Shown piece after piece: positions 3,087 to 29,736 of a stretch of DNA of 64,000 bases; the stretch's first letter is position 1; the number at the start of each line of letters is the position of its first letter. Made by a program: the position numbers and the translations under genes. The notes beneath the pieces were generated by a model. The model searched no databases. It worked only from the letters and a program-made list of their open reading frames with translations, and was not told where the DNA came from. Source of the DNA: an uncultured Nitrospiraceae bacterium (GTDB lineage: Bacteria; Nitrospirota; UBA9217); assembly GCA_964447405.1 (NCBI GenBank), contig CAYUSP010000003.1, positions 691,723 through 755,722 on the forward strand. The letters run 5' to 3'.

Positions 3087-3157
3087 GAGTTCGTAGTTCG
3101 GAGATAAAGACCGAAACTGCGATTCTCACTTCCATCTCCGAACTCCAAACTCCGAAC
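3087..3157. repeat. Intercistronic hairpin element: arms GAGTTCGTAGTTCGGAGAT / ATCTCCGAACTCCAAACTCCGAAC, 28-nt loop
   Basis: The inner 11 bp (AGTTCGGAGAT/ATCTCCGAACT) pair perfectly. The arms are tandem repeats of an (A)GTTCGGA-like unit. The element starts 5 nt after the gspE stop. Confidence 0.8.
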
Positions 3158-6748: not shown

Positions 6749-6829
6749 AACCGGAGAATCGGGGAATGGGGGCCTCGGAAAGGTTCTCGGGCCAATATTC
6801 CGTAGCTCCCGTTCCCCGGTTCCCCGGTT
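6749..6829. repeat. Intercistronic hairpin element: arms AACCGGAGAATCGGGGAATGGG / CCCGTTCCCCGGTTCCCCGGTT, ~37-nt loop
   Basis: 19 of 22 positions are complementary. The arms are tandem CCGGGGAA-like units. The element starts 6 nt after the gspC stop and lies before the gspD start. Confidence 0.8.
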
Positions 6830-6835
6830 TATGTG

Positions 6836-7660
6836 TTAGCGTATCTCGTAGTTCAGCGTCTGGCGCTGACCGCCGCGGATGAGGTCAATGGAGATGTACC
6901 GCTCGTTCCTGAGTCCCTGGTAAAGCTGGAAGAACTTGGAGGGATCGTCAACATCCTGCGAATTGACCCGCTGGATCACATCATTGTTCTGGATCCCGAT
7001 CTTCTCATAGATGCTGCCCGGCACGATCTCGCTGATCTTGAACCCCACGGTCTTTCCCTGCTCCATATGGGGCAGCGCACGCGCCTGCGTCAGTATCTGG
7101 CTCATGTTTTCCGTGCTCGCGATCATTTCTTTCTGGTCCACCATCCATTTGCCATCGGAGAGCTTTTTTACACCGTTTACGCCCGGCTTTGGGATGGAGA
7201 CGATCTTGGTGTCGTCGATGATCTGGATGTCGACGGTCCCGCCATCCGCTTTCTGGAGCGTGACCTTGTCGCGGATAACCTTTATGATCTGCGAACCATC
7301 AGGCAGCTTCTGGCGCGTCCGGTAAAAAGCCTGGCCCGTGCTGTCCTCAAGCACTGCGCCGGAAAAATTCGCGCCCTCCACCGTCCCGATGAGCTTGTAG
7401 GTGGTGGCTTCGATTGCTGTCGCTCCCCCGGAAGGCCCTTTTCCATCACCGAAGATCCCGCGTTCAAGGATGGAGGAATAATCGGAGAGCTCGCGCTTCG
7501 GCTCGATCGCTGGCCGTTCACGGTCCAAGGGAGCCGCGTACTTCGGAGCAGCATCAAGGCTCCTGCCGATCATCGCATCCACCGTATCAGCAAGAAAATA
7601 AGCTGAAAACGTGAGAAGAGCAATGAGAACAAGCGTATACAGTGTTTTTTCTTCTTTCAC
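6836..7660 (-). CDS. gspC: GspC-like type II secretion protein (N-terminal TM helix, C-terminal PDZ domain)
   Basis: 274 aa with a GTG start, TM segment LYTLVLIALLTFSAYFL and a PDZ-like C-terminus (GFKISEIVPGSIYEKIGIQNNDVIQRVN). It sits immediately upstream of gspD. Confidence 0.7.
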   Translation of the reverse strand: MKEEKTLYTLVLIALLTFSAYFLADTVDAMIGRSLDAAPKYAAPLDRERPAIEPKRELSDYSSILERGIFGDGKGPSGGATAIEATTYKLIGTVEGANFSGAVLEDSTGQAFYRTRQKLPDGSQIIKVIRDKVTLQKADGGTVDIQIIDDTKIVSIPKPGVNGVKKLSDGKWMVDQKEMIASTENMSQILTQARALPHMEQGKTVGFKISEIVPGSIYEKIGIQNNDVIQRVNSQDVDDPSKFFQLYQGLRNERYISIDLIRGGQRQTLNYEIR

Positions 7661-7702
7661 GACAGAAATGCCCCCCTAATGCTTCTTACCTCGTCATAAA
7701 AA

Positions 7703-7743
7703 ATTATACTCTCTGGCGGGTTTCTTGTCAATTGTTAACAATT
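7703..7743 (-). promoter_or_regulatory. Consensus sigma-70 promoter (TTGACA-17-TATAAT) for the gsp operon, with an overlapping 14-bp palindrome AATTGTTAACAATT
   Basis: On the minus strand, -35 is at 7726-7731 and -10 at 7703-7708, with a 17-nt spacer. The palindrome (7730-7743) overlaps the -35 box. The -10 box is ~45 nt upstream of the gspC start. Confidence 0.6.
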
Positions 7744-7815
7744 TGAGAGTAAAAGGTTTTTCCCTGTCCTGGCCGCTTCTGCAATGCTTTCCGAACAGCC
7801 GTCCGGTTCAATCGA

Positions 7816-8499
7816 TCATGCAATGAAGAACCCCTGGTAAAACCGCTCTGCCCGCTCACGGTAGCCGGGAAATATCCGTTCCGAGTCAATGGCAACGTCG
7901 GAAACATCGATGCCCTTCTCGTTCTTCAGCCATTCCTGCACCATGGCAGGAGTGACCTCGATGTGGAATTGGAGCGCATACACCCTGTCACGAAACAGGA
8001 AAGCCTGGTTCTGATAGAGCTCCGAAGATGCGAGGCATACAGCTCCAGCAGGAAGATCGAACGTGTCGCCATGCCATTGGAAGACCTGGGCACGGTCCCG
8101 GCCTGGTATCGTGAGAGCGGACATACCGGGATCTTTCAATCCGTCGCGCGTCAGTTCAACTTCGGACCATCCAATCTCCTTGCGAGAGCCGGGATAGACA
8201 CGGCTGCCGAGCACATGTGCGATCATCTGCGCACCAAGGCAGATTCCGAGTACATGCTTGTCCATTTTTATGGCCCGATCAATCAGCAGTGCCTCGTGTA
8301 CGAGATGGGGATAGGTAAGCATTTCGTACACCGCCATGGGTCCGCCCATGACCAGAAAATGGGAAAATTGATCGGGATCGGGGACATCATCGCCCGCGCT
8401 GAGATCAACGACCGCAAAGGGTATCCCGCGCGCAAGCAAATGCTCCGCGATCGTACCCGGCCCTTCACTGAAGATGTTCTTGATGATGAGAACCCGCAT
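7816..8499 (-). CDS. Class I glutamine amidotransferase-like protein (GMP synthase GATase-domain type)
   Basis: 227 aa. The GICLGAQ nucleophile elbow and ...QFHIE motif are typical of the type-1 GATase family. Confidence 0.75.
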   Translation of the reverse strand: MRVLIIKNIFSEGPGTIAEHLLARGIPFAVVDLSAGDDVPDPDQFSHFLVMGGPMAVYEMLTYPHLVHEALLIDRAIKMDKHVLGICLGAQMIAHVLGSRVYPGSRKEIGWSEVELTRDGLKDPGMSALTIPGRDRAQVFQWHGDTFDLPAGAVCLASSELYQNQAFLFRDRVYALQFHIEVTPAMVQEWLKNEKGIDVSDVAIDSERIFPGYRERAERFYQGFFIA

Positions 8500-8508
8500 A
8501 AAGCGCGA

Positions 8509-8676
8509 TCATCCCTTCTTTGAAAAAAATATGAATGCCATAGTAGGCCGCTTGGAGGACACGGAGGTCACAAACTGGATGCTCTCGAACACGCATCCCT
8601 TCGCCGTCCATTCGTTCAGGGTCCGTTCGATCTCTTCATCGGTCACCGTGCTGATTTCAACGACTTTATAGGACAT
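8509..8676 (-). CDS. Small hypothetical protein (55 aa), possibly DUF4177-like
   Basis: My own translation: MSYKVVEISTVTDEEIERTLNEWTAKGCVFESIQFVTSVSSKRPTMAFIFFSKKG. It is below the ORF-track cutoff. The ATG lies exactly 7 nt after a TATAAT box, and the gene is immediately upstream of the GATase gene. Confidence 0.45.
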   Translation of the reverse strand: MSYKVVEISTVTDEEIERTLNEWTAKGCVFESIQFVTSVSSKRPTMAFIFFSKKG

Positions 8677-8682
8677 GCCCGG

Positions 8683-8711
8683 ATTATAGACAAGGCGGGA
8701 TTATTTTTCAA
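8683..8711 (-). promoter_or_regulatory. Sigma-70-type promoter TTGAAA-17-TATAAT positioned for a leaderless transcript of the 55-aa ORF/GATase unit
   Basis: On the minus strand, -35 is at 8706-8711 and -10 at 8683-8688. The A of the ATG (8676) is 7 nt downstream of the -10 box. Confidence 0.5.
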
Positions 8712-8741
8712 TGATTATCGAAAAAAGCGCTTACTTTCCTG

Positions 8742-8776: not shown

Positions 8777-9961
8777 ATGCTGGCCGACAAAAACGTTCTC
8801 TCTGGACTGGATCTCATTGACAAACAGTGGCCCCGGGACCTCAAAGGCGCGCGTGTCGGGCTCGTCGTGCATCCCGCTTCCGTGAACCGCAACCTGCAGC
8901 ACGCGGTCACAATATGCATGAGGTCGAAGCGCTTCGAGCTCACTACGCTCTTCGGCCCGCAACACGGGATCCTCGGGCAGACCCAGGACAATATGATCGA
9001 ATGGGAGGGTTTCAAAGACCAGTCCACCGGCCTCCCTGTTTACAGTTTATACGGTAAATTCCGCAAACCTCGCCCTGAGATGTTGGCGAACATTGATGTT
9101 CTGGTGGTCGACCTTCAGGATGTGGGGAGCAAATATTATACGTTCATCTGGACATTGGAACTCTGCATGCAAGCGTGCAGGAGCGCGGGCAAGGCCGTGA
9201 TTGTCCTGGACCGGCCCAATCCGATAAATGGGCAGAGCGTTGAAGGGCCGCTCCTGAATCCCGAATACGCGTCCTTTGTCGGGCTTCGTCCCCTTCCCAT
9301 CCGCCACGGCATGACCATCGGAGAGATCGGATCCTATCTCAGAAACACATTCCATGCCGGGCTGGACTACCGTGTCATCGCCATGCAGGGATGGAAGCGC
9401 GGCATGTGGTTTGAACAGACAAAACTGCCCTGGGTAATGCCCTCACCTAACATGCCGACACCCGATACGGCTCTGGTCTATCCCGGCATGTGCCTGTTCG
9501 AGGCCACGAACATCTCGGAAGGCAGGGGTACCACGCGGCCCTTCGAGATCTTCGGTGCACCGTTCATCATTGCCGAGGCTATTGTGGACGTTCTCAAAGA
9601 ATTCAAGCTGCCTGGCGTGATCTTCCGCCCCCTCTCGTTCCAGCCCACGTTCCAGAAACACGCGAACGCACTCTGCAACGGCGCTCAGATCCATGTAACG
9701 AACCGTGACAGGTTCAAACCATTCAAGACCGGAGTAGCGATCCTGAAAGCCATCCACAATACGTATCCCCGCGACTTCAAGTGGAACCAGCCTCCCTATG
9801 AATATGAAGAAGTGAACCTTCCTATCGACATCCTGGCGGGAAGCGATCGGCTGCGCAAGGACGTCGAATCATGGAAGGACATTGATGATATGGAAGCGTG
9901 GTGGAAGGAAGAAGCGAAGGCGTTTGAAAAAACAAGGAAGCAATTCTTGCTCTATAAATAG
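8777..9961 (+). CDS. namZ: DUF1343 family protein, NamZ-like exo-beta-N-acetylmuramidase candidate
   Basis: ORF 8711..9961 trimmed to the ATG at 8777. MLADKNVLSGLDLI...ARVGLVVHPASV...VVDLQDVGSKYYTF...LDRPNPING...GLRPLPIRHGMTIGE is the DUF1343/YbbC pattern. Confidence 0.75.
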   Translation: MLADKNVLSGLDLIDKQWPRDLKGARVGLVVHPASVNRNLQHAVTICMRSKRFELTTLFGPQHGILGQTQDNMIEWEGFKDQSTGLPVYSLYGKFRKPRPEMLANIDVLVVDLQDVGSKYYTFIWTLELCMQACRSAGKAVIVLDRPNPINGQSVEGPLLNPEYASFVGLRPLPIRHGMTIGEIGSYLRNTFHAGLDYRVIAMQGWKRGMWFEQTKLPWVMPSPNMPTPDTALVYPGMCLFEATNISEGRGTTRPFEIFGAPFIIAEAIVDVLKEFKLPGVIFRPLSFQPTFQKHANALCNGAQIHVTNRDRFKPFKTGVAILKAIHNTYPRDFKWNQPPYEYEEVNLPIDILAGSDRLRKDVESWKDIDDMEAWWKEEAKAFEKTRKQFLLYK

Positions 9962-9970
9962 AACCATTTC

Positions 9971-10103
9971 ACCGCAGAGGACGCAGAGGGGAAGCATGGC
10001 GAGGAAGGCAACGGCGGGCAAGGCATTAAGCTTTGTTTAAAAACCAGAAATAATTTTGAATTAAGATTTCCTTGGAGTTGATTTCCTCTGCTTCCTCTGC
10101 GGT
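9971..10103. repeat. Cargo-less hairpin element with the same terminal inverted repeats as the GxxExxY cassette
   Basis: The left arm ACCGCAGAGGACGCAGAGG (9971-9989) is identical to 12360-12378. The right arm CCTCTGCTTCCTCTGCGGT (10085-10103) matches the exact complement at 18 of 19 positions. The 95-nt interior is AT-rich and has no ORF. Confidence 0.85.
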
Positions 10104-10114
10104 AACAATTATTT

Positions 10115-12091
10115 ATGCCTGAATTCAATCTCAACATTTTCCTCCCCGCAGCTGGCCTCGGTGAACGGCTCAGACCGATCACGAACCACATTCCCAAACC
10201 GCTCCTTCCGATACTCGGCAAGCCAATCATCGAAGGCATTCTCGATAAACTCACTCTTGTCTGCAACGGCAGCATAGGGATTAACCTCCACTACAAGCCG
10301 GATATGCTACGCGAATGGGCTGTACGATCTACCTGGGCTGACCGCATATCATTCTTTCCCGAGGACCCGATCCTCGGGACCGGCGGCGCGCTTAAGAACG
10401 CGGAGTCATTTCTCTCCAGCAGGAACTTCATCGTCCACAACTCAGACATCCTCCTTGATATCAACTTCACCCGCCTGATCGAAGAGCACCTCTCTTCAGG
10501 TAATATCGCCACACTTGTATGCCACCGTTTGCCGGAGCTTGCCAACGTCGTGATCGATACACACGGCCAGGTCCTGGATGTAGAAAACCCGGGAGCATCA
10601 AAACCGGACGCATCGACCACTGCGGACAAGGTCGCCTATACCGGCGTCGCAATCTACTCACCGGACATATTGCAGTTTCTGCCATCCGGCGTTTCACATG
10701 CCACGGTCGCGTGGATAGCCGCGTCCAAGGCTGGTTTTCGAGTGCGCGCCTGGGATGTCACCGGCTCGTACTGGAACGACGTGGGAAATCCAGTGACCTA
10801 TGCACGAGGTGTACTGGACGCCCTGCGTGAAAACGGGGAAATGGTGCATGTCTCCCCTGCGGCACGATGCGGGAACATCCTGAGCGACGGTTATCTGGTG
10901 CTCGAGTCAAACGGGGAAGTACAGGACAGCTCCCGGCTCAGGAATTGTATTGTGATGCCCGGGGCAAACGTTTCCGGCAGTCATGCGGACTGCATTCTCG
11001 GTCCGGACTACGCGGTCGCACTTACGGAATCCGACATGCAGCCGTCGGTCCATGCGGCGGAAAAGAAACGCGTATTGCTGAACGATCCGCTTTTCTCGTC
11101 GCACTTTGGGATTCACGCCATGAGCAACTGCACAGCTGCAACTCCCAACTCGCCATTCTGGTCCGACGCAATCCTGATAGGACTCGGCGGCTCGGATAGG
11201 CGCTATTTCCGCGTACGGAACAATGGTAAGACCGCGGTCCTCATGGAGTGCCGGCAGGATGATCCGGACTATGATCGCCATTTGATTTACACCAGGTTCT
11301 TTAAAGAACATACCGTGCCCGTGCCTGAGCTCATTGCATCAGACACTGAGGGCAAACGTGCCCTGTTCGAGGACCTCGGAGACACATCGTTGTACTCATA
11401 CCTGAAGCTTCCGCACGCGGCTTATGCAGTCGAGGAAGTCTATCGGAAGGTGCTCGACATCCTGGTGCAGCTCCACACCAGGGTCACGAATCATGTATAC
11501 GGGTGCCCGACACTCAGTGCGCGAGTATTCGACTATGATCATTTACGGTGGGAAACAGGTTATTTTATGGAGCGGCTCGTCACCGGACTGAAAGATATCG
11601 CGGCGTTTGATCGGGCGGCACTGGACAACGAATTCCACCGGCTTGCGGAGCGGACAGCTGCGTTGCCCAAAAGCGTGATCCACCGGGATTTTCAATGCCA
11701 GAATATCATGATCACGGATGGAGACATGCCGCGCGTAATCGATTTCCAGGGCGCACGCATGGCGCCGCCAGGTTATGATGTCGCATCCATGCTGTGGGAC
11801 CCGTACCACCGGCTGGATGAAGGCGTCCGGGAGCGCCTTATTGGTTATTATGTGGCGGAAATGAAGAAATGTTCGGAAAATTTCGATGAGCAGGCTTTTT
11901 TGAACAGCCTGATCCCCTGCCGGCTTCAGAGACATATGCAGGCTTTGGGTGCATTTGGATTTTTGTCTGTGGTCAAGGGGAAAAAATATTTCCGCAAGCA
12001 CATACCCGAGGCAATGCGACTGTTGAAAGAGGAGACTATCCTGGTCAAGGAAGAATTTCCGACGCTGGCATTGCTCGCGTCAACACTCTGA
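10115..12091 (+). CDS. Fused sugar-1-phosphate nucleotidyltransferase (MurU-like) and aminoglycoside-phosphotransferase-fold sugar kinase (AmgK-like)
   Basis: A single 658-aa ORF. The N-terminus has LPAAGLGERLRPITNHIPKPLLPI (the NTP-transferase G-x-G-x-R motif). The C-terminus has HRDFQCQNIMI...VIDFQGARMAPPGYDVASML (APH/AmgK-type catalytic loop). Confidence 0.65.
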   Translation: MPEFNLNIFLPAAGLGERLRPITNHIPKPLLPILGKPIIEGILDKLTLVCNGSIGINLHYKPDMLREWAVRSTWADRISFFPEDPILGTGGALKNAESFLSSRNFIVHNSDILLDINFTRLIEEHLSSGNIATLVCHRLPELANVVIDTHGQVLDVENPGASKPDASTTADKVAYTGVAIYSPDILQFLPSGVSHATVAWIAASKAGFRVRAWDVTGSYWNDVGNPVTYARGVLDALRENGEMVHVSPAARCGNILSDGYLVLESNGEVQDSSRLRNCIVMPGANVSGSHADCILGPDYAVALTESDMQPSVHAAEKKRVLLNDPLFSSHFGIHAMSNCTAATPNSPFWSDAILIGLGGSDRRYFRVRNNGKTAVLMECRQDDPDYDRHLIYTRFFKEHTVPVPELIASDTEGKRALFEDLGDTSLYSYLKLPHAAYAVEEVYRKVLDILVQLHTRVTNHVYGCPTLSARVFDYDHLRWETGYFMERLVTGLKDIAAFDRAALDNEFHRLAERTAALPKSVIHRDFQCQNIMITDGDMPRVIDFQGARMAPPGYDVASMLWDPYHRLDEGVRERLIGYYVAEMKKCSENFDEQAFLNSLIPCRLQRHMQALGAFGFLSVVKGKKYFRKHIPEAMRLLKEETILVKEEFPTLALLASTL

Positions 12092-12334
12092 TACAATCGG
12101 CTGTGCGCCTCTATCCCTCATTGCTTTCTCCACTGCCGTGATTTGCTCGTTAAGCAACTTGCACTCTTCCTCGTATTCCGTGGTCAAATTCTGCGCTTTT
12201 TCGGCGCCGATGTGCACCGAGGTCTTCACGAAGGTGAATGAGTGCATGTCCTGCAGGTCGCACAGGTTATCCTTCAACCGCTTGAGCTCGGCTTTGAGTT
12301 CGTCGAAGGACATATCGTTATAATTCTTTGTCAT
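12080..12334 (-). CDS. Small hypothetical coiled-coil protein (84 aa)
   Basis: ORF trimmed to the ATG at 12334 (MTKNYNDMSFDELKAELKRLKDNL...). I recognise no family. It is AT-richer than its neighbours. Confidence 0.4.
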   Translation of the reverse strand: MTKNYNDMSFDELKAELKRLKDNLCDLQDMHSFTFVKTSVHIGAEKAQNLTTEYEEECKLLNEQITAVEKAMRDRGAQPIVSEC

Positions 12335-12359
12335 AACACAAACCTCAAAACCTTTTTTT

Positions 12360-12845
12360 ACCGCAGAGGACGCAGAGGAAGTCAAACCCGCTGGCCTATA
12401 ATCCGTTGGCGACTCTCTTAATGCCATCTTTCAAATGAACAACATTGAAGTTTATTAATAGCCCAAGCTTTTTATTGCTTAATTTCAGGTATGAAAGAAT
12501 TTGTGCTTCATGAATCGGCAATATTTTCTCAACTGCCTTCAATTCAACGATAACACAATTGTCAAGCATAAGGTCTATTCTATATCCGGCATCGATCTTC
12601 AAGCCATCATACAGGATCGGCAAGGCCATTTGAGAAAGCACGGTTAATCCGAGCTTTCGTAGTTCATGCAGCAAACATGCTTCATACGCGCTTTCCAGCA
12701 AACCAGGACCCAAAGCTGAATGAACTTTCATTGCAGCTTCAATAATCTTACCACTAACCCCATTTATATCCATTTATTCCAGACCTCCTGTCTATCCTGC
12801 CAGTTTTTGACCTCCTCGCCTCTCACCCTCTGCGTCCTCTGCGGT
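12360..12845 (-). mobile_element. Hairpin-bounded cassette carrying a GxxExxY gene (perfect 19-bp terminal inverted repeats)
   Basis: ACCGCAGAGGACGCAGAGG at 12360-12378 is the exact reverse complement of 12827-12845. The interior is AT-rich. The element begins 6 nt after the cca stop. Confidence 0.7.
12396..12773 (-). CDS. GxxExxY family protein (PD-(D/E)XK-like small protein)
   Basis: 125 aa. It has the motif G-L-L-E-S-A-Y in ...HSALGPGLLESAYEACLLHEL, a typical ...DLMLDNCVIVELKA... core, and an AGGAGG RBS 8 nt upstream. Confidence 0.85.
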   Translation of the reverse strand: MDINGVSGKIIEAAMKVHSALGPGLLESAYEACLLHELRKLGLTVLSQMALPILYDGLKIDAGYRIDLMLDNCVIVELKAVEKILPIHEAQILSYLKLSNKKLGLLINFNVVHLKDGIKRVANGL

Positions 12846-12851
12846 GAAAGA

Positions 12852-14270
12852 TTATCTGAATCTCTCCAGATACACCAGCGCCTCCTGCCTGGTCGCGATA
12901 ACTCCCTCTGCCTGCTTCTCCTTAATCTCCTCCAGAATCTCGCGAAACCGCGGACCCGGTGTAAGTCCAATCCCGATGAGGTCCTCACCCCTTATCAGTG
13001 GTTTCTCTTCGACCTTCAGGAATTTTGAAAAGTAGAATTCCAGGACCGCAGCCATGGTCTTCGAGGTGTCCGTAAACTTTTCCCTGGGCATGATCTCGAA
13101 TGTAGCGCGCGCGTCCGCCTGGGCAAGGAGCAGACTCTCCGGCACAGACTCTCCGAGATCGCGGCAGTAGCGGTACATGGCGTTTCTTCCCGGACCGCCT
13201 GGAGCGGAAAGATTAAACAGCCTCATGTGCTGTTTGATGACCCGGGTGACCGCTTTTTCCGTGTCTTTCGAGAGCTTCAATCGCCGGCAAATGCCCGCCG
13301 CCTTGTCCGCGCCCAGATTGTCGTGTCCATGGAACCGGACATGGCCGTCCGCATTCGTGAACGTCTCGGGCTTTGCATTATCATGGATAAGACAGGCGAA
13401 TCTGAGCGCTGCCTTTCTCGTGACCTGGTGTTCGAGCAGCTCATCGAGGTGCGCCAGTATAGCAGCTGCATGCTCTGGTGGAAGTGACTGCAGATCATCC
13501 AGTACCGCATCGATATACCCCGCTGTTTTTATGGAATGGGTCAGGACATCATGGACATGGTACCTGCCGGGAGCAAAGCCGCGGAGCGTTTCGAGTTCCG
13601 GCAGAAGCGGCGCGAGAAGACCAAGTGAATCCAGGAGCGTGAGATGCTGTTCAGCATTCCGTTCGGCAAGGATGATAAAGAGCTCATCCCGAACGCGTTC
13701 TGGAGCTGGCCGCGATATCAGGCTTGCGCGCTGCCGGATGTGCTCCGCAGTCGATGCCTCGATCGTACATCCCAACGCAGCAGCAAATCGCACTGCGCGC
13801 AAAAGACGAAGAGGGTCCTCATCCAGAACCTCCGGACTTGTCACGCGAATGACCCTGTTCTCCGCATCCTTTTTACCATGAAAGAGATCGATCAGTCCTG
13901 CAAGAGACTGATCACGCATGAACTCCCGCAGGTCAAGCGCCATGGCATTGATGGTGAAATCCCGACGGCCAAGATCGGCCTGCAGGTCAGGACCTTCGAA
14001 GTTCGTAAAATCGAACTGAAAGGAGCCATCGTTCTCATACTTCATGACGCGCGTTATCTTTCGATCTTCGTCCAGGAAAAAAAAACTGCCCTGAATCAGA
14101 TCAGCGAACGTGCGCGCCACAGCCTCCGAGCCTTCAGGCATGAGCAGGTCTATGTCCTTGAGGTCCTGTTTGCCTATCAGGAGGTCGCGGATAGCTCCGC
14201 CGACGAGATAGATGGGTTGGGGAGTTAATGAAAGCAGCTTGGCAAGATATTTCGAAGCGAGAGCATCCAT
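12852..14270 (-). CDS. cca: CCA-adding tRNA nucleotidyltransferase / poly(A) polymerase family with an HD domain
   Basis: 472 aa with YLVGGAIRDLLIG...DIDL...RRDFTINAMA (the Pol-beta nucleotidyltransferase head) and HDNAKP/HGHD (HD domain). Confidence 0.8.
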   Translation of the reverse strand: MDALASKYLAKLLSLTPQPIYLVGGAIRDLLIGKQDLKDIDLLMPEGSEAVARTFADLIQGSFFFLDEDRKITRVMKYENDGSFQFDFTNFEGPDLQADLGRRDFTINAMALDLREFMRDQSLAGLIDLFHGKKDAENRVIRVTSPEVLDEDPLRLLRAVRFAAALGCTIEASTAEHIRQRASLISRPAPERVRDELFIILAERNAEQHLTLLDSLGLLAPLLPELETLRGFAPGRYHVHDVLTHSIKTAGYIDAVLDDLQSLPPEHAAAILAHLDELLEHQVTRKAALRFACLIHDNAKPETFTNADGHVRFHGHDNLGADKAAGICRRLKLSKDTEKAVTRVIKQHMRLFNLSAPGGPGRNAMYRYCRDLGESVPESLLLAQADARATFEIMPREKFTDTSKTMAAVLEFYFSKFLKVEEKPLIRGEDLIGIGLTPGPRFREILEEIKEKQAEGVIATRQEALVYLERFR

Positions 14271-20810: not shown

Positions 20811-20921
20811 GGACAGAAGTAAGAAGACAGACTGAACCAATATACCGCACGCTTGTATACCTTGTCTATTGTCTGACTTCTCTCTTCTGTCCTCTGTCTT
20901 CTGTCCTCTGTCTTCTGACCC
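20811..20921. repeat. Cargo-less hairpin element related to the four-helix-bundle cassette, plus tandem CTCTGTCTTCTGTC units
   Basis: The left arm GGACAGAAGTAAGAAGACAGAC (20811-20832) pairs with GTCTGACTTCTCTCTTCTGTCC (20871-20892) at 19 of 22 positions. Its first 16 nt are identical to 29288-29303. It starts 3 nt after the lemA stop. Confidence 0.8.
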
Positions 20922-28665: not shown

Positions 28666-29313
28666 TTGCCATCACAAATAACTCATGCTATAACGCTCGT
28701 CATGTCAACCTCTCCCTCCTTAGAAGAACAGATAACGATGGCGGGCCTCACATACGGACGCCGCCACGACATCGCATACCGCTCCGGCATGGTGCTCCAG
28801 GTATGCGGTGCTGCCTTGCTCGCTGTGCTGTATCCGCTCGACAGCCCGTTCTATACCATAGGCATCATGCTGTTCGAAGCCGGCGTACTGCTTTCTGCAA
28901 TCTATCTTCTCGTTTGGATGCGCCCGGTCAAGAAGATAATAGTCGGGTCGGTGATCGCAGGGCTCGTTCTTCAAGTAGTCGGTGCCTTCGCGGCCCCGGA
29001 ACAATATGCGGGTCTGGTTCTGCTCTCAGGAATCGGGCTCGTCTGCGCTGGAGCGGCTGGGATGGTCGGCAATGAGGCGTTTTGCTTTGGATACCGTGAA
29101 GGCTGGGTGCTTATGCTGGCTGGATTTCCCGTGATGGTCCTGGCAAATCTGCTGCTCAGAGAGAACCGCATTTTCAATTCGCTGGGTTTCTCCGTTATTT
29201 TTTTACTGCTGCTTTCACTTACAGGCAAGAAGCTAAGGCAGAAATTGCTTTCTTTACCCTCTACAAGCGTTTGCGGGGTGTCGGAGAGGACAGAAGTAAG
29301 AAGTAAGAAGTAA
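28666..29313 (+). CDS. Hypothetical multi-pass membrane protein (possibly DUF2301-like)
   Basis: It has 5-6 predicted TM helices and a ...GNEAFCFGYREGW... motif. The start is uncertain (alternative ATGs at codons 13 and 25). The last ~9 codons and the stop lie inside the repeat arm of the downstream cassette. Confidence 0.5.
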   Translation: MPSQITHAITLVMSTSPSLEEQITMAGLTYGRRHDIAYRSGMVLQVCGAALLAVLYPLDSPFYTIGIMLFEAGVLLSAIYLLVWMRPVKKIIVGSVIAGLVLQVVGAFAAPEQYAGLVLLSGIGLVCAGAAGMVGNEAFCFGYREGWVLMLAGFPVMVLANLLLRENRIFNSLGFSVIFLLLLSLTGKKLRQKLLSLPSTSVCGVSERTEVRSKK

Positions 29314-29736
29314 GAGAACTACCAAATATAATTCGTCCAACATGAAAAAACATAACTTCAGAAATCTAAAAATCTACCAACGAGCCATAGCATTCGCTGT
29401 GGATATTTACCAGATCAGCAGGAGTTTTCCGCAGGATGAAATTTATGGGCTGACAAGTCAGATACGACGGGCCGCAACTTCAATCCCCCTTAATATTGCC
29501 GAAGGCAGTGGCAGCACATCAGGAAAAGAGTTTAGGCGATTTCTTGAAATTGCTTTACGTTCTGATTATGAGGTATTGGCCTGTCTGGAAATATCATTAC
29601 GATTGAATTACTGCAATCATGCGGTTTTTGAAAAACTGACTCAGGAAGCAAACGAAATAGCATCCATGATAGCTGGATTCTCAAAAAGCCTATAATCTTA
29701 CTTCTTACGTCTTATCTCCTTTTTCTTTCTTCTGTC
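29288..29736 (+). mobile_element. Hairpin-bounded cassette carrying a four-helix-bundle (23S rRNA IVS-type) gene
   Basis: The left arm is GGACAGAAGTAAGAAGTAAGAAGTAAGA (29288-29315). The right arm is TCTTACTTCTTAC...CTTCTGTC (29696-29736). The inner 13 bp and outer 8 bp are complementary. The cargo is AT-rich. The stop codons of both flanking convergent genes fall in the arms. Confidence 0.65.
29342..29695 (+). CDS. Four helix bundle protein (23S rRNA-intervening-sequence protein family)
   Basis: 117 aa. ...LKIYQRAIAFAVDIYQISRSFPQDEIYGLTSQIRRAATSIPLNIAEGSGSTSGKEFRRFLEIALRS..E is the canonical pattern of this family. Confidence 0.85.
   Translation: MKKHNFRNLKIYQRAIAFAVDIYQISRSFPQDEIYGLTSQIRRAATSIPLNIAEGSGSTSGKEFRRFLEIALRSDYEVLACLEISLRLNYCNHAVFEKLTQEANEIASMIAGFSKSL

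Follow-up and report, generated by a model that had tools for sequence, protein, structure and literature searches.

The window analysed here is a stretch of 64,000 nucleotides from an uncultured Nitrospiraceae bacterium (GTDB lineage Bacteria; Nitrospirota; UBA9217; assembly GCA_964447405.1, contig CAYUSP010000003.1, positions 691,723 to 755,722), in which a small gene for a protein of the GxxExxY family is bracketed by an inverted repeat. Read along the minus strand, the order of features is cca (14270-12852, with the stop codon at 12852-12854), 6 nt, the arm-gene-arm segment, 25 nt and an open reading frame (ORF) of 84 amino acids (12334-12080). Such arm-gene-arm units are widespread and are inherited and exchanged as a whole, and the segment is one of the resident copies. 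Its parts are the following:

12827-12849: arm on the cca side (5′ on the sense strand of the gene), TTTC-ACCGCAGAGGACGCAGAGG, with the core 19-mer at 12827-12845; pairs with 12356-12378 in the fold
12799-12812: inner extension of the stem on the leader side, partner 12380-12395 in the fold; related cassettes have equivalent extended stems
12784-12789, minus strand: Shine-Dalgarno sequence AGGAGG, 10 nt before the ATG, as read from the sequence
12396-12773, minus strand: cargo gene, encoding a GxxExxY / PDDEXK_3 nuclease-fold protein of 125 amino acids with conserved E27, D67, E77 and K79
12380-12395: inner extension of the stem on the trailer side, partner 12799-12812 in the fold
12356-12378: arm next to the 84-amino-acid ORF (3′ on the sense strand), CCTCTGCGTCCTCTGCGGT-AAAA, with the core 19-mer at 12360-12378

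An earlier, sequence-only reading of the window had described perfect 19-bp terminal repeats whose arms are themselves tandem duplications, and both points were borne out. The sequence ACCGCAGAGGACGCAGAGG at 12360-12378 has its exact reverse complement at 12827-12845, each arm is composed of two tandem 9-mers (GCAGAGGAC-GCAGAGG), and with the flanking TTTT/GAAA the perfect inverted repeat of 19 nt grows to 23 nt at a match of 96% (12356-12378 / 12827-12849). Within the window, four matches to the 19-mer with at most three mismatches were found, as compared to 0.04 expected, and this number was reached in none of 100 shuffles. The same reading was also right in placing the arm 6 nt behind the cca stop codon, in assigning AGGAGG (12784-12789) to the gene as its ribosome-binding site and in calling the cargo AT-rich, as the gene has a G+C content of 39% compared to 56% for the window. 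Its expectation that the ends can fold into a long stem agrees with the RNA fold of the 526-nt segment, in which the arms are paired (−165.6 kcal/mol, z −4.5) and the stem, including the inner extension and an internal loop, reaches about 35 bp. The GxxExxY gene, taken in that reading for the sole ORF of the segment, is indeed the only one with family support, whereas ORFs of at least 48 amino acids that were called mechanically also overlap the segment. No sigma-70-type promoter was found inside the cassette. Likewise, there is no direct target-site duplication; instead, the flanks (TCTTTC and AAAAAAA) prolong the palindrome (TTTN...NAAA). A search of the window with Rfam at gathering thresholds yielded no family and no rRNA, and at E ≤ 10 the region 9900-12900 gave only chance hairpin hits.

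The assignment of the encoded protein is clear, with 149.7 bits for TIGR04256 (cut-off 35, E 3.9e-44, profile positions 3-115 of 116) and 145.3 bits for PF13366 PDDEXK_3 (cut-off 22, E 1.3e-42). Alignments of 54 and 44 members show no variation at G24, E27, Y30, D67 and K79 and none or almost none at E77, and E27/D67/E77/K79 form what is, judged from the sequence, a complete predicted PD-(D/E)XK centre of the type E/D/ExK. A structure model (predicted local distance difference test score 87.5) has an alpha-beta core of nuclease type. The fold search yielded weak matches to the Cas4 protein SSO0001 (4ic1), lambda exonuclease, DrdV, CinB and tRNA-splicing endonucleases, with E-values from 8e-3 and template modelling scores of 0.4-0.5 for the best of them, and a weak Cas4 profile match was obtained as well; a sequence search of solved structures gave no match. 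Taken together, the modelled fold and the profile matches point weakly to nucleases of the Cas4/RecB type. The GxxExxY/PDDEXK_3 family comprises 20,952 representative clusters at E ≤ 0.001, two-domain fusions included, and is listed as being of unknown function (PMC3424549). The literature searched contained neither a description of the arms nor a link between GxxExxY proteins and such arms. Some proteins, among them P0361-P0365, have a length of about 270-295 amino acids and contain two GxxExxY domains in tandem, an arrangement that would fit a dimeric single-domain protein.

The arm sequence is by no means restricted to this bacterium. In DNA from one genome per species, the 19-mer is found without mismatch in at least 120 genome stretches, while about four chance matches would be expected in 2 × 596 Gb by our own arithmetic. 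Its hosts include Cyanobacteria, Acidobacteriota, Planctomycetota, Verrucomicrobiota, Gemmatimonadota, Chloroflexota, Nitrospirota and Bacteroidota, several proteobacterial classes and one archaeon, with Calothrix NIES-2100, Oscillochloris trichoides DG6 and Hymenobacter aranciens being examples of isolates. That Cyanobacteria, Acidobacteriota, Planctomycetota, Bacteroidota and Nitrospirota have an exact 19-mer in common outside of genes is in itself unusual and calls for a sequence-specific reader. In these motif-selected loci, TTT(N) precedes the 19-mer, arms begin with (T)TTN-ACC, and more 9-mer units often come after the 19-mer. Of 53 convergent arm pairs, 47 span 47-231 bp and six span 398-686 bp. 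All five GxxExxY genes encoded in the 120 motif-selected loci listed lie at the motif (Trichlorobacter, a zetaproteobacterium, Hymenobacter, Blastocatellia and Holophagaceae). More than one locus comes from several of the genomes, and the density of arms is very high in some IMG/VR contigs (L125, L127, L129, L122), with as many as 25 arm clusters in 12 kb. There are genomes in which hairpins fill nearly every intergenic gap. Regarding possible vehicles, the motif was present in 12 IMG/VR stretches, none of which contained a GxxExxY gene, and no close relatives of GxxExxY or four-helix-bundle proteins were found on viral contigs. Plasmid carriage was limited to eight records, all of which were typed as non-mobilizable and which are mostly large replicons of 0.4-1.6 Mb. 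In a weak test with conserved rRNA probes, no rRNA was found in the loci examined. In loci from Nostocales (L011, L013, L018, L019, L032, L075) the 19-mer is nested in another conserved palindrome (AGGACTTACGCA ... TGCGTAAGTCCT), which looks like one repeat inserted within another.

The converse sample, 80 metagenomic loci for which the presence of a gene for a related protein (58-84% identity) was the sole criterion of choice, leads to the same unit. Nearly every GxxExxY gene in it has inverted repeats of a single class on both sides, with units that fit N-C-R-C-N-R-A-G-G (CGCAGAGG, CACAGAGG, CACGAAGG, CACAAAGG and others). Arm clusters amount to 4.9 per kb within 200 nt of the gene and to 0.13 per kb beyond 400 nt, a 37-fold difference. 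By the strict pattern, an arm was found in 59 of the 66 loci with adequate flanks, and most of the others have near-variants. The gene is situated either in one long hairpin, as in the window, or between two short hairpins. When all loci are taken together, the loops have a bimodal length distribution (<200 nt or 300-500 nt). An ORF of at least 70 amino acids is enclosed by 25 of the 29 pairs whose loops measure 250-2000 nt, and in 18 of these 25 it encodes a GxxExxY protein. More distant family members from isolates have arms of the same class, for example in Bacteroides finegoldii (between radA and the gene for an FAD protein), in Gemmatirosa and in Sphingomonas parapaucimobilis (between fabD and fabG). 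In the P0108 loci (L224-L229) the GxxExxY cassette is situated between mod and res of a restriction-modification operon, with the purine arm overlapping the mod stop codon and directly abutting the ATG of the cargo. The unit is thus found between unrelated housekeeping or defence genes in many phyla. Its gene has a lower G+C content than the flanks in 62 of 63 GxxExxY loci. Among 82 short hairpins, a remnant of a GxxExxY gene was detected in the loop of one (E 2e-7). The invariant core RAGG of the purine units (GAGG, AAGG, GGAGG) resembles a Shine-Dalgarno sequence, and the opposite arm (CCTCT/CCTTC) an anti-Shine-Dalgarno sequence.

The arms are constrained in their pairing as well as in their primary sequence, and arms and gene travel and diverge together. 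In a set of 83 distinct arm pairs, pairing is kept in 93.5% of cells and both sides vary at 10 of the 19 positions, the invariant ones being partly imposed by the search pattern. Cells with a double change number 141, as compared to 68.9 ± 6.8 in shuffles (none of 500 reaching 141), and when the register is slid, pairing falls to 36-57%. The two arms of one element differ at 1.7 of 19 positions, whereas a 5′ arm differs from the arms of other elements at 3.8. Moreover, the distance between arms tracks the distance between the proteins (Mantel rho 0.34, p 0.0005). In the comparison of the window with the syntenic loci L137, L139 and L142, 17-18 of 19 arm positions are identical and all changes are transitions, whereas the proportion of synonymous differences (pS) in the cargo gene is saturated at 0.78-0.85 and that of nonsynonymous differences (pN) is 0.12. 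That the arms are kept despite saturated synonymous sites indicates that both pairing and primary sequence are constrained. The conservation of the primary sequence is far beyond the requirement of a generic double-stranded RNA stem.

Whether this constraint acts on one strand was addressed by comparing sense and antisense with respect to stem stability and G-U content, as G-U pairs are tolerated in RNA and A-C pairs are not. Neither 35 cassettes (19:16, p 0.10; G-U 94 versus 70) nor 58 short hairpins between co-directional genes (30:28, p 0.38) exhibited a significant asymmetry, and the data therefore do not support a selection confined to one strand. Short hairpins are situated in 58 co-directional, 19 convergent and seven divergent gaps, the latter (promoter) gaps being avoided. 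Cassettes are co-oriented with the upstream neighbour in 43 of 54 cases (80%) and with the downstream neighbour in 65%. As this is near the usual bacterial background, co-orientation was dropped as evidence.

The history of the cassette can be followed best at the cca site. Homologues of the cca gene are at most 76% identical, and the named ones belong to Nitrospirota. Orthologous cca loci turned out to be polymorphic. The full cassette (cca, arm, GxxExxY, arm, small ORF) is present in the P0002 contig, L137/L138, L139-L141 and L142/L143, a gene-less and decayed hairpin of the CACGAAG type precedes the small ORF in L133 and L134, and L135 and L136 have an empty site with a bare gap of 43 nt. 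As the occupied lineages are not monophyletic in the cca tree, the pattern is most simply read as an ancestral cassette that was later lost in some lineages. The cassette did not arrive at this site recently; it is probably ancestral to the clade, and it is under strong purifying selection. Protein identity is 82-88% for GxxExxY where it is 69-73% for cca. Between L139 and L144, pS is 0.13 for the cassette, 0.59 for cca and 0.49 for orf78, and between L139 and L142 it is 0.09 for the cassette as compared to 0.25 and 0.30 for the flanks. The identity forms a plateau of 92-100% over the cassette versus about 78-85% outside of it. Together, the low pS and the plateau indicate exchange of the cassette between lineages at the same site. 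Occupancy also varies at the fabD|fabG junction in Sphingomonas, which is occupied in one species and empty in another. In every case, pairs of highly similar GxxExxY genes have homologous flanks, which means that recent jumps to new sites are not seen.

Several further details were observed at these loci. In L139 (1945-2030) and L142 (1970-2055) the 5′ arm and the leader are tandemly duplicated at a distance of about 80 nt, while L144 and the window each have one copy. Arm arrays both grow and shrink. The gap between cca and the small ORF in L134 (6425-6659) contains a palindrome of the ATTCCCGCTTACGCGGGAAT type, and the gap between murU and namZ (9096-9271) a hairpin with arms of GTTCACGGT-type tandem units, so that the same intergenic sites are colonised by different palindromic elements across lineages. 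The murU/amgK fusion of L133 was called in four pieces (6752-8719, 8890-9379), owing to frameshifts or assembly errors, and two small ORFs between murU/amgK and namZ give the impression, from their sequence, of a toxin-antitoxin pair. The 84-amino-acid ORF of the window (12080-12334, minus strand) has no family match and overlaps the 3′ end of murU/amgK convergently by 12 nt. It is conserved beside cca (58-77% identity) in every relative examined, irrespective of the presence of the cassette.

Further elements of related build in the window are the following:

9967-10107, plus strand: gene-less hairpin with the same arms, 9971-9989 being exact and 10085-10103 having one mismatch; fold −56.8 kcal/mol, z −5.6
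20812-20912: gene-less hairpin with arms GGACAGAAGTAAGAAGACAGA / TCTGTCTTCTGTCC... (also given as TCTGTCTTCTGTCCTCTGTC...), which are related to the arms of the four-helix-bundle cassette; z −4.4
29284-29719, plus strand: sister cassette of the same architecture with tandem AGAAGTA/ACAGARG arms at 29284-29316 / 29696-29719

The arms of the GxxExxY cassette are thus present a second time in the window (9971-9989 / 10085-10103), which the sequence-only reading had overlooked. The gene-less hairpin (9971-10103, 133 bp with a loop of 95 nt) lies 2.3 kb from the cassette and occupies the gap between namZ, which ends at 9961, and the murU/amgK fusion, which starts at 10115. Its first 49 nt or so have matches of 84-88% to the arm and leader region of GxxExxY cassettes from other sources, and its loop is unique. 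Read on the plus strand it is co-oriented in the way the cassette is on the minus strand, so that each of the two follows its own operon. The cargo of the sister cassette is a four-helix-bundle protein of 117 amino acids (29342-29695; TIGR02436, E 3.6e-36), and its neighbours are a membrane ORF of 215 amino acids and a sigma-54-type response regulator. This is the family of the protein that is encoded in intervening sequences (IVS) of the 23S rRNA in Coxiella and Leptospira (PMC4990558). Curated family descriptions reportedly point out that GxxExxY proteins and the four-helix-bundle family are similar in their distribution. Further four-helix-bundle cassettes were seen between DUF2130 and cas10, between selA and selB and after a tRNA, and they too have purine-rich arms, made of 7-mers.

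The sequence-only reading had likened the cassette to rRNA intervening sequences. This comparison is apt, as the insert is bounded by a stem and a cassette with a cargo of the IVS protein family is present in the same window (29284-29719), although there is no rRNA site and the cargo is not S23p. ORF-bearing IVS of 23S rRNA (Coxiella burnetii, Leptospira; PMC4990558) are inserts of 400-500 nt with complementary termini and a small ORF in the loop, they are richer in A/T than the host, exist in short versions lacking the ORF and have a sporadic distribution suggesting horizontal transfer followed by vertical maintenance, all of which resembles the GxxExxY cassette. The long terminal stem of such IVS also has its counterpart here (23 nt at 96%, extending to about 35 bp). 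The IVS of Coxiella has a terminal stem of 28 bp and an ORF inside, is cut by RNase III in vitro and contains a decaying ORF (PMC4990558). The GxxExxY cassette, unlike these, is situated between cca and the 84-amino-acid ORF and not in an rRNA helix, its cargo is a PDDEXK_3 nuclease and not S23p, a four-helix bundle (PF05635), its arms are tandem 9-mers with a primary sequence kept across phyla, and its ORF is under strong purifying selection.

Repetitive extragenic palindromes (REP/REPIN) and their REP-associated tyrosine transposases (RAYT) are the second obvious relatives (PMC3116915, PMC3337134, PMC5581495, PMC3733652). Both systems consist of short palindromic intergenic repeats in many copies and an enzyme gene flanked by inverted copies of the repeat, with a gene-less copy being present in the window (9967-10107), and both show mostly vertical inheritance, long persistence, co-divergence of repeat and enzyme and no target-site duplication. 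The enzymes are different, as the 125-amino-acid protein is a PD-(D/E)XK nuclease and not an HUH/Y1 (IS200/IS605-like) transposase, with only the families PDDEXK_3 and GxxExxY being matched. We also take the GxxExxY gene family to be often multi-copy, unlike RAYT. While REP are palindromes of 20-40 nt with a GTAG or CGTC head (PMC3733652), the tandem 9-mer arms lack that head, and the arms are common to many phyla, whereas REP families are generally considered, and in part described (PMC3686654), as species- or lineage-specific. With Cas4/RecB-type and minimal PD-(D/E)XK nucleases, including homing endonucleases, the protein shares the predicted fold and the E/D/ExK centre; unlike Cas4, it has no Fe-S cluster domain and no CRISPR context. 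The Correia elements of Neisseria are 100-150 bp long, have terminal inverted repeats, are intergenic and co-transcribed and give rise to RNase III-sensitive hairpin transcripts; they differ by their TA target duplications and by terminal repeats that are specific to a lineage, and no nuclease gene is known to be nested in their loop. Three further candidates were rejected. A DDE-type transposon or miniature inverted-repeat transposable element would fit the terminal repeats but not the lack of a direct target-site duplication. An integron gene cassette does not match arms that bracket the gene on both sides with near-perfect pairing, nor single dispersed copies, the window not having been searched for an integrase. 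As to a homing endonuclease in a group I or II intron, the Rfam searches of the window revealed no intron or intein context.

A GxxExxY hairpin cassette of this kind is apparently undescribed and looks selfish rather than like an ordinary chromosomal gene. The sequence-only reading had argued along the same lines, and it is supported on this point by the recurrence of the unit in other phyla, the gene-less copy in the window, the polymorphism of the site and the younger age of the cassette relative to its flanks in close pairs. How such a unit might persist is a different question, for which we consider the following model about evenly poised between being right and being wrong. The PD-(D/E)XK (GxxExxY) nuclease would recognise its own arms, most likely as DNA, and through recombination across them it would help the cassette to be copied or replaced. 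The cassette would in effect home into homologous sites or into sites that carry a hairpin, by a logic like that of REP/RAYT with a different enzyme class. The hairpin, being seated between a stop codon and the next ribosome-binding site, would make an insertion between cistrons tolerable, and as RNA it might be a substrate of RNase III in the manner of rRNA intervening sequences.

It is this last aspect that could, on its own, account for the cassette if it were a purely RNA-level element of the IVS type, which is co-transcribed with cca and from which RNase III, by cutting the stem, releases the loop RNA (the GxxExxY mRNA) or exposes it to degradation, the arms being of importance solely as double-stranded RNA and the nuclease having no part in their biology. 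The stem indeed folds well as RNA (z −4.5, and −5.6 for the short copy), the cassette lacks a sigma-70-type promoter, short hairpins are rare between divergent genes (seven versus 19 convergent and 58 co-directional), and the architecture is like that of the Coxiella IVS with its 28-bp stem, its ORF and its RNase III cut in vitro (PMC4990558), with a cassette of the same build and a cargo of the IVS protein family being present in the window (29284-29719). The co-orientation of 43 of 54 cassettes with the upstream gene would fit as well, but these 80% are near the usual same-strand rate of bacterial neighbours, and the strand tests (19:16, p 0.10; 30:28, p 0.38) show none of the asymmetry that selection on an RNA would suggest. 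RNase III requires no particular sequence, and yet the exact 19-mer is kept across phyla and across lineages with saturated synonymous sites. In addition, the type of arm tracks the protein, and the gene is under purifying selection with an intact predicted active site, unlike the decaying ORF of the Coxiella IVS (PMC4990558). An explanation by RNA processing alone thus appears unlikely to us. Even less probable, to a degree that we would call it rather remote, is that the gene is an ordinary accessory gene of long residence, the hairpin being a local regulatory or insulating structure with no mobility of its own, which might act, for example, in mRNA stability or translational coupling, or by the pyrimidine arm masking Shine-Dalgarno-like GAGG/AAGG. 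Such a role would agree with the probably ancestral state of the cassette in the clade (82-88% protein identity versus 69-73% for cca), with the homologous flanks of all similar gene pairs, with the precise position of the arms between stop codon and next ribosome-binding site and with the purine arm abutting the ATG in the P0108 loci. It does not, however, explain why unrelated phyla harbour the unit between genes that are themselves unrelated (cca|orf, mod|res, radA|FAD protein, fabD|fabG), why orthologous sites differ in its presence, why pS of the cassette is 3-5 times below that of the flanks in close pairs, why the G+C content of the gene is systematically lower than that of its flanks and why gene-less hairpins with the same arms occur elsewhere. 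That chance or low complexity placed the inverted repeat around an unrelated ORF, an idea for which only the purine-rich and repetitive nature of the arms speaks, is practically inconceivable. It is refuted by the window shuffles (four matches versus 0.04 expected), the cross-phylum 19-mer, the arms at GxxExxY genes in 59 of 66 loci and the covariation in their pairing.

Several observations nevertheless weigh against the nuclease acting on its own arms. The link between nuclease and arms is a correlation, and the co-divergence of arms and protein is equally predicted by simple co-inheritance. Gene-less hairpins far outnumber gene-bearing ones, and with a gene remnant in just one of 82, hairpins may spread by a mechanism without the GxxExxY gene; some IMG/VR contigs are dense in hairpins and have no such gene within the stretch seen. 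Moreover, the cassette has no target-site duplication, near-identical cassettes in unrelated flanks were not found among about 90 loci, and long vertical residence dominates the history of the cassette. In close pairs, part of the reduction in the cassette's pS could be due to constraint at the nucleotide level.

A wider generalisation is more tentative than the model itself. It is conceivable, although we lean towards doubting it, that GxxExxY nucleases and tandem-9-mer hairpins are a hitherto undescribed class of persistent replicators throughout bacteria, in which the nuclease reads the sequence-specific arms and, by recombination, brings about the copying of itself and of gene-less hairpins, and that the ORF-bearing IVS of 23S rRNA and the four-helix-bundle cassettes are the same type of element landed elsewhere. 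If true, a family of more than 20,000 protein clusters would thereby acquire a function, and the origin of rRNA intervening sequences would be accounted for. Tying the GxxExxY family to a hairpin conserved across phyla would provide it with a concrete substrate. It would also link REP-like palindromes, ORF-bearing rRNA intervening sequences and the small four-helix-bundle or GxxExxY genes which interrupt operons such as cca, fabD-fabG, selA-selB and restriction-modification. On a practical level, the hairpins give rise to spurious ORF extensions in annotations (PQRTQR..., SASSAV...).

Some minor observations concern the other cassettes and hairpins. The gene-less hairpin at 20812-20912 and the four-helix-bundle cassette mirror the pairing of the hairpin at 9967-10107 with the GxxExxY cassette. 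Defence operons hold small-gene insertions of both types, GxxExxY and four-helix bundle, and in the P0360 loci (L230-L236) a four-helix-bundle cassette is situated directly upstream of cas10. In L230 and L233, the four-helix-bundle gene is preceded by long (G)GACAGAGG arrays. A short hairpin at 3087-3152 of the window has repeat-built arms (GAGTTCGTAGTTCGGAGAT / ATCTCCGAACTCCAAACTC), which possibly represent a third arm class, and a tandem array of GGAACTACGG, similar to these arms, flanks the cassette in L196.

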